Positions 58,987 through 60,202 of a DNA stretch of 64,000 bases are shown piece by piece (position 1 is the first letter of the stretch; each line of letters starts with the position of its first letter). The stretch is from the NCBI GenBank assembly GCA_964016885.1, contig OZ024743.1, forward strand, positions 59,768,001-59,832,000, read 5' to 3'. Source of the DNA: Eledone cirrhosa. Taxonomy: Eukaryota. Both the position numbers and the translations under genes were made by a program. Below the pieces are notes generated by a model. It searched no databases, was not told the DNA's origin, and saw only the letters and a program-made list of their open reading frames with translations.

Positions 58987-59032
<46 letters not shown>

Positions 59033-59098
59033 GAAGAGAGAAGAAACATTTAGATATAATTAGTAATAAGATGTATCATACCTAAACTGCTTCTAGAT

Positions 59099-59188
59099 TC
59101 CTCGACTACGTAGTTTCGTGGCATAATCAAAAACAATACATCATAGAGATATAGAGCTTTTGTGAGGTCTGCCGACTTATCAAGAGGA
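59099..59188 (-). ncRNA. type I hammerhead, U3:A8 core variant
   Basis: tcctc TTGATAA gtcggca..tgccac GAAA ctacgtag TC gagga. Confidence 0.75.
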
Positions 59189-59822
59189 TACCTCATTTTA
59201 CTAGCTTCAAAGAGCATGTCTATAAGATGTGAGATAGAATCCCAAAAGGCGGAGGGGGAATCAATCACGTGATACGACGGTCAAGAAACAGAGCTAAGCC
59301 CCTTATAACCCTGAAAATAATACCACGGAGGCGGAGGGGGTATTTATATCGAGCCCGTAGAAGAGGTGGTTAAGGGGGAAAGAAGTATGAGTAATGGCAG
59401 CTTTCCAGCAGTCACTACACTTCAAGGATTACTCGACCAGGGGAAGTTATAAACAATATATTGAGAAACACACAGATACATGCGGACACAAACATATACA
59501 TGAATATATCCACATCCGTCCTTGAGTTAATGATGCCAACCTTAACCGATGTTGCTCTATGAATAACTGGGACAAACCAATCCGAATGGATTAGACTGAA
59601 CCGGTATCAGAGCTAAAAGTACATTATGAAGAGAGAAGAAACATTTGGATATAATTAGTAATAAGATGTATCATACTTAAACTGCTGGTATTTTTTTCAG
59701 GGTTATAAGGGGCTTAGCTCTGTTTCTTGACCGTCGTATCACGTGATTGACTCCGCCTCCGCCTTTTGGGATTCTATCTCACATCTTATAGACGTGCTCT
59801 TTGAAGCTAGTAAAATGAGGTA

Positions 59823-59912
59823 TCCTCTTGATAAGTCGGCACACCTCACAAAAGCTCTATATCTCTATGATGTATTGTTTTTGATTATGCCACGAAACTA
59901 CGTAGTCGAGGA
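59823..59912 (+). ncRNA. type I hammerhead, U3:A8 core variant
   Basis: tcctc TTGATAA gtcggca..tgccac GAAA ctacgtag TC gagga. Confidence 0.75.
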
Positions 59913-60202
59913 ATCTAGAAGCAGTTCAGGTATGATACATCTTATCACTAATTATATCTAAATATTTCTTCTCTCTTCATAATGTACTTTTAGCTCTGAT
60001 ACTGGTTCAGTCTAATCCATTCGGATTGGTTTGTCCCAGTTATTCATAGAGCAACATCGGTTAAGTTTGGCACCATTAACTCAAGGATAGATGTGGATAT
60101 ATTCATGTATATGTATGTGTCCGCATGTATCTGTGTGTTTCTCAATATATTGTGTATATATATATATTTTTATATATACATATATTTATATGTATATAAC
60201 CC

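Follow-up and report, generated by a model that had tools for sequence, protein, structure and literature searches.

A U3:A8 hammerhead is the norm in a high-copy non-coding repeat of Eledone cirrhosa that is likely copied into (TA)n by a Penelope-like protein

We found that two inverted hammerhead motifs in a 64-kb stretch of Eledone cirrhosa DNA (the window, meaning the whole stretch that was analysed) lie in back-to-back arms of one insertion of a 591–595-bp non-coding repeat in (TA)n, and that the U:A pair at positions 3 and 8 of their core is the norm of the repeat family, not decay. Our main reading, to which we give a probability of about 0.8, is that a type I U3:A8 hammerhead is standard in this high-copy repeat, that it is predicted to cleave itself as a dimer after C17, and that the repeat is copied into (TA)n in the manner of Penelope elements.

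A hammerhead pattern matched the window twice, at 59828–59907 (+) and 59104–59183 (−), and matched none of 100 shuffles, in agreement with the earlier note on this DNA, which had described two inverted copies with a UUGAUAA core. The motifs and their parts are as follows.

59823–59912 (+), type I hammerhead motif, plus copy: UUGAUAA at 59828–59834, GAAA at 59894–59897, C17 at 59907; predicted cut 59907/59908
59099–59188 (−), type I hammerhead motif, second copy, same anatomy: U3 at 59183, C17 at 59104; predicted cut 59104/59103
59835–59893 (+), stem II and loop 2: 59835–59841 with 59888–59893, 6 bp, C59837 bulged; 46-nt loop
59897–59906 (+), stem III palindrome, 10 nt: counterpart in the minus copy at 59105–59114; predicted pairing between copies
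59816–59848 (+), candidate pseudoknot, 6 bp: 5′ flank 59816–59821 with loop 2 59843–59848

The motifs have the core elements of a type I hammerhead (UUGAUAA, GAAA and GUC) with three helices around the core, and the topology is type I because stem I is the open helix. In the plus copy, U3 is 59828, A8 is 59833, G12 is 59894 and C17 is 59907. The 3:8 pair is a Watson–Crick U:A, an accepted natural variant, and U4 G5 A6, A9, G12 A13 A14 A15.1, U16.1 and H17 are present. Checked position by position, the perfect 5-bp stem I (59823–59827 with 59908–59912, all Watson–Crick), the GUC triplet and the palindromic helix III are as the earlier note had given them; its stem II of about 60 nt stands as a region, and resolves into a helix of 6 bp, from which a single C is bulged out, and a 46-nt loop that contains its own inner hairpin. 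An extension of stem I in the minimum-energy fold was dropped, as it is not kept between subfamilies. Rfam found no hammerhead at gathering score across the window, nor at E ≤ 10 within 58900–63900; the matches obtained were low-complexity miRNAs below threshold.

The span 59029–60153, over which the earlier note had placed the pair of hammerheads, corresponds to the limits of one insertion whose arms diverge from 59686.

59025–59686 (−), arm 1: 662 nt, one 595-bp unit plus 67 nt of redundancy
59686–60153 (+), arm 2: 5′-truncated, about 470 nt, back to back with arm 1
59984–60153 (+), the 'tail' between End A and End B: about 165–170 nt, on one arm only
58866–59028 (no strand), left target flank: (TA)n-rich; target duplication unreadable
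60154–60200 (no strand), right target flank: (TA)n-rich

The 3′ end of arm 1 (End A) lies about 74–79 nt past the predicted cut and enters (TA)n at 59025–59029, and the 3′ end of arm 2 (End B) lies about 246 nt past the predicted cut, also entering (TA)n. The two arms differ at 9 of 301 positions, which bears out the suspicion that both copies share a recent origin; as arms of one insertion, they are not independent of each other. The unit has no coding frame, all six frames of arm 1 being full of stops. Runs of up to five units are joined head to tail at 591–595 bp, no ORF intervening, and the stem III 15-mer occurs 8,071 times in the 3.0-Gb genome, often at this spacing; tandem repetition of non-coding units that each have a type I hammerhead is a defining trait of non-LTR retrozymes. 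The window copy itself is probably inert, because its hammerheads, one per arm and on opposite strands, cannot supply a dimer from one transcript. One contig of run X1, at low depth, skips 168 nt of the window, 59912–60081, which is about the length of the tail; this run may derive from the assembled sample itself, cannot reveal RNA ends or expression, and is given no weight as support.

UUGAUAA is the family consensus, the outcome on which the earlier note had made its reading depend. A 26-mer around the U3:A8 core has 5,820 exact matches in the genome. Among loci picked by the stem III word alone, a sample unbiased for the core, 93 of 104 motifs are UUGAUAA and one is UUGAUGA; ten gave no call, owing to truncation or to a change adjoining the core. 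No C3:G8 member was found, CUGANGA together with the family palindrome having no match in the genome. The word CUGAUGAG with any palindrome centre has three matches, which were rejected as C3:G8 members because an intact UUGA-type core stands downstream of the word in each. These are the most distant copies (L241–L243, at about 1500–1600), with CUGAUGA 5–6 nt upstream of that core; it may stand there by chance, as a pseudoknot strand or as a relic of a duplicated core.

The copy counts do not in themselves reveal selection on the pair. With position 3 left free, position 8 is changed in 13 copies (eight G, four T, one C), every one of which has U3 and none C3; position 3 is changed in ten copies, four of them to C (C3:A8), and the 3:8 pair never covaries inside this family. 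Position 7, which is free in hammerheads, shows nine changes and is as invariant as positions 3 and 8, with single changes at all three sharing one background level of about 0.2%. Because this free position is equally invariant, the counts show common descent. The novelty that the earlier note had implied for U3:A8 does not hold: natural cases have been in print since 2011 (PMC3088659, available text) and in Penelope-like elements since 2014 (PMC4209133, available text), so that the motif in the window is a new example of a known thing. The core swap adds little, being already in print and frequent, and at least four families carry it in this genome; thousands of such motifs are missed by CUGANGA searches and by Rfam.

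Comparison between subfamilies, which are up to 21% apart, was based on 158 distinct copies and that in the window. Across four subfamily consensuses, variation touches 1 of 43 positions in the hammerhead and 66 of 198 outside it (Fisher p = 7e-6), a difference that is inflated because the copies were found through the hammerhead sequence and the positions are not independent; across six consensuses, none of the 12 core positions changes. A chance find next to another element was a sister subfamily with about 67–70% identity to the unit. Searching with the palindrome centre left free gave 293 motifs, and in 31 loci examined (30 of these and L184) a perfect palindrome was kept in 32 of 35 sister motifs, in two new forms, making three different stem III palindromes in total across the subfamilies. 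Among 12 representatives picked by hand, 96.1% of cells are paired, and double-sided change is seen in 5 of 15 pairs, spread over all three helices; helix I is 5 bp, and the G10.1–C11.1 pair is present in all 12. The covariation score of this set was reached by none of 500 shuffles, and its count of five pairs by 60 of 500. Compensatory changes of this kind in the stems would be expected from selection for a functioning hammerhead fold. We consider it very likely that the motif is a selected, dimer-type hammerhead. The subfamilies provide natural compensatory variants of every helix, which gives the family some use as a test system, and each of the three palindromes would presumably dimerise only with copies of the same form.

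Folding predictions point to a motif arranged for work as a dimer in a tandem repeat, which the earlier note had missed. In the predicted monomer, stem III has a pairing probability of at most 0.10; the predicted palindrome duplex between copies has −12.9 kcal/mol, and the minimum-energy fold of two copies is a hammerhead dimer (−61.1 versus 2 × −23.7 kcal/mol) in which the palindrome forms a 10-bp helix and every core base is free. A palindromic 15.2–16.2 region, with a helix III predicted to be unstable in the monomer and stable in the dimer, is characteristic of Penelope-type hammerheads. The z-score of the monomer region (−0.89) and the circular fold of the unit, about two standard deviations below shuffles, do not count as evidence. 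Two conserved hexamers, one 5′ of stem I and the other opening loop 2, are complementary to each other. The full 6-bp pairing is found in 126 of 142 distinct copies, and one pair occurs as U-A, U-G and C-G; in 17 representatives, 92% of cells pair and a double change is seen in only 1 of 17 rows. This complementarity makes a 6-bp pseudoknot between the 5′ flank and loop 2 possible. Pseudoknots of such a kind are common in hammerheads, and those between stem I and stem II have been described for all three hammerhead types (PMC3088659).

We then surveyed where the arms end. The first 100 pattern matches on contig C1 gave 52 loci with 52 scored blocks (a 53rd block is cut by the edge of its locus). 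Their 3′ ends cluster at two sites, A at about +74 to +81 and B at about +239 to +252 from the predicted cut; both are TA-rich spots running into (TA)n, and both lie downstream of the cut. The blocks comprised 28 inverted A/B pairs, 1 called A/A and no B/B, with the rest made up of 19 single arms (10 A, 9 B) and 4 others. One A/B locus is duplicated; on a fair-coin expectation, 27 of 28 has p = 1e-7. The A/A call, at L059, was rejected as two insertions merged by the script; a real A/A exists at L141, in another locus set. The sister subfamily shares these two ends, which are 169 nt apart there.

The two arms of a locus resemble each other more than arms of different loci do: inverted arms differ at 0.85 of 183 sites within a locus (47 pairs) versus 4.1 between loci (3,998 pairs). 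L077 and L097 each have one private allele common to both arms; only these two count, because the other three of five shared private alleles, all in L078, were discounted as subfamily traits. Arm similarity and private alleles together fit one template for both arms, and the rule of one A and one B end fits two-site priming on such a template, which bears on the integration of both Penelope elements and retrozymes.

The insertions have the features of Penelope-type integration, namely partial tandems, 5′ truncation, an inverted 5′-truncated arm and a tail on one end, the last two of which are given as the Penelope signature in the available text of PMC8557442 and PMC3846280. A Penelope protein has been reported to cut and extend both strands in vitro, and the tail is set by the two internal sites at which it starts (PMC11167929, available text). 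It is likely, in our view, that the repeat is copied into (TA)n by a Penelope-like reverse transcriptase-endonuclease. The less ordinary features lie outside the core: the one-A-one-B ends about 170 nt apart, the arms of up to five units and the possible pseudoknot. Published Penelope tails are 30–40 bp (PMC11167929, PMC8557442 and PMC3846280, in the parts available), and a thin check of the literature, some of it accessible in part, turned up no report of one near 170 nt.

In about 240 loci sampled, no autonomous element turned up with sequence in common with the unit, and no sampled unit copy runs into a same-strand coding frame. A short-loop pattern yielded 438 further UUGAUAA hammerheads, compared with 1 for the control; they belong to at least three unrelated families (L215–L240), of which one has ends 108 nt apart. 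In another of them, at L236 and L237, a Hydra-type ORF with DKT and CxCx5C lies 450–490 bp upstream of the U3:A8 hammerhead, which is unrelated to that of the unit. Both motifs are those described for the Hydra clade, whose target is (TA)n. Because of this proximity and this target preference, our best guess, by analogy, is that the unit may be moved by a Hydra-type Penelope protein. The ORF at L230 was rejected as belonging to the family beside it, family (i), of which it is merely a neighbour.

Other Penelope families are present in this genome, which we take to be Neptune-type and Poseidon-type from sequence motifs and from Pfam RT and GIY-YIG matches, not from a tree. The Neptune-type family (L174:1363–3714, L175, L176) is young and abundant; many copies have a 784-aa open frame, and 150 of 150 scored matches are at 98–100% identity. 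It inserts in (TA)n with a tail of 39 bp (22 and 22 of 54 ends). A hammerhead scan of L174–L176 saw none, and the family was rejected as a partner on present evidence, as it shares no sequence with the unit. Among 173 unit-bearing loci besides that of the window, one (L126) abuts a Penelope ORF, of Poseidon type: at L126:1300–2750, a unit arm stands back to back with the 3′ part of the ORF, a single case that points elsewhere. The end repeat of that family (L088:3010–3060) includes a motif (CCGAAGA) that resembles a hammerhead but has C at position 4.

The window holds further elements. A decayed Penelope ORF 45 bp to the right of the insertion was rejected as its ORF, because it belongs to a separate element with its own canonical hammerhead. 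This 5′-truncated Penelope-like element (60204–62480, +) has an RT end and GIY-YIG, ends in (TA)n and resembles the Hydra-type ORF in L074; its CUGAUGA hammerhead, at about 62380–62452, has a stem III palindrome with one mismatch, and canonical and U3:A8 hammerheads stand 2.5 kb apart. Other GIY-YIG Penelope-like fragments are at 54647–54925, 13781–14143, 41310–41387 and 42692–42802, all on the minus strand. A short repeat with an internal inverted repeat and (TA)n flanks occurs in direct and inverted pieces at about 55570–55705, 63230–63415 and 63710–63830, and may be another non-autonomous Penelope-type family. A 174-aa frame at 21928–22449 (−) has motifs that may be those of Helitron Rep proteins.

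In the mechanism that we propose, neighbouring hammerheads in the transcript of a multimeric array would form a dimer and cut out unit-length RNA, which may circularise. A Penelope-type protein, most likely of the Hydra clade, would nick both strands of (TA)n, and each nick would prime reverse transcription on one shared template, the first at site A and the second at site B. Two arms would then grow back to back, each able to span several units, and the two inverted hammerheads of the window would be such a pair. Alternatively, the tandem arms could have been copied from a linear, multimeric transcript and not from a circle. We put forward a more specific version only tentatively: a circular-RNA retrozyme of about 595 nt, round which a Hydra-type protein rolls after priming at two sites 170 nt apart, with the U3:A8 core of the dimer propped by a pseudoknot between tail and loop. 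If that is true, thousands of young insertions would form a natural record of the still undefined steps by which the tandem and inverted structures of Penelope elements arise, and the repeat would provide a minimal substrate for testing those steps.

It seems unlikely to us that the fold is kept for dimerising or for binding by a Penelope protein, with cleavage weak or unneeded for spread, although several lines of evidence would agree with it. The hammerhead of PAc, the sole Penelope element studied in vitro, is dispensable for insertion and cuts only with protein (PMC11167929, available text). Naiad elements spread without canonical hammerheads, and in the present family both fixed ends lie downstream of the predicted cut and not at it. 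What speaks against this alternative is that the 12 core positions fixed in six subfamily consensuses are more than dimerisation alone needs. Two further published results count against the main reading: no RNA reads end at the cleavage site of PAc (PMC11167929, available text), and minimal hammerheads of Penelope elements cleave poorly in vitro, with low activity and only as dimers (PMC4209133, available text). U3:A8 constructs, on the other hand, have been reported active in vitro, as cited in the available part of PMC3088659.

Considerably less probable is that the units do not form a separate non-autonomous family but are the pseudo-LTRs of an unfound autonomous Penelope-like element, whose insertions are seen in truncated form. 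In layout, target and tail the copies match Penelope insertions, most Penelope copies are 5′-truncated, and the partner search covered about 240 loci; yet rows of up to five ORF-less units at constant spacing, and the lack of a same-strand coding frame entered by any sampled copy, speak against it. The idea that the copies are decayed, passively amplified descendants of a canonical C3:G8 hammerhead is largely refuted by the consensus: both core changes are transitions from the canonical form and three distant copies have CUGAUGA just upstream of the core, but these retain the UUGA-type core in place, no C3:G8 member was found, and the stems kept changing with compensation after U3:A8 was fixed.

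The main reading, a dimer-type U3:A8 hammerhead in a Penelope-copied repeat, has several relatives among known systems. Natural U3-A8 covariation of the core was stated by Perreault et al. in 2011 (PMC3088659), and the accessible part of PMC2920678 does not mention U3:A8. The variants of PMC3088659, a survey of all domains of life, have the same 3:8 covariation, and stem I–stem II pseudoknots are described there; here, by contrast, the motif is of dimer type and sits in a high-copy eukaryotic repeat. Nearer are the Cercyon elements of Schistosoma mansoni, as described in the available text of PMC4209133. They share the type I U3-A8 core, a short helix I, G10.1-C11.1 and the palindromic 15.2–16.2 region, and they also occur in thousands of mostly truncated copies with opposite-strand pairs a few hundred base pairs apart (about 1,300 U3-A8 hits, with pairs 100–700 bp apart, are given for Schistosoma). 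Unlike Cercyon, the present motif has a 10-nt palindrome as helix III, a bulge inside helix II, a 46-nt loop 2 and a carrier without an ORF. In the same available text, the strict minimal hammerhead has no helix III or loop 3, an unpaired base between positions 9 and 10.1, and a helix II of 7–8 bp, whereas here 8 nt lie between A15.1 and U16.1, no base lies between A9 and G10.1, and helix II has 6 bp with an inner bulge. We therefore file the motif with the palindromic-helix-III variants that this paper gives for Drosophila, rotifers and shrimps, whose small palindromic helix III is a closer match to the 10-nt helix III found here.

The repeat that carries the motif makes up a new non-coding family of Penelope type. 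It lacks the ORF with RT and GIY-YIG that marks an autonomous EN+ Penelope-like element. Like the non-LTR retrozymes (Cervera and de la Pena 2020, PMC7229834; Li et al. 2026, bioRxiv 10.64898/2026.07.22.740005; available text of both), for which an origin from pseudo-LTRs has been proposed, it consists of AT-rich, non-coding tandem units with type I hammerheads that coexist with Penelope-like elements. It differs in its Penelope-type core variant, frequent inverted arms and two fixed ends, and in a unit of 591–595 bp against 150–450 bp (PMC7229834, available text). The family works like a non-LTR retrozyme and is not filed as one, because its unit is longer than described and its circle is a putative one. 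With Penelope itself, according to the accessible parts of Frangieh 2024 (PMC11167929), Craig 2021 (PMC8557442) and Arkhipova 2013 (PMC3846280), it shares back-to-back inverted arms, an extension at one end and an AT-rich target; what sets it apart is that the element is non-coding, that both arms are able to hold several units, and that the tail is about 165–170 nt, compared with 30–40 bp.
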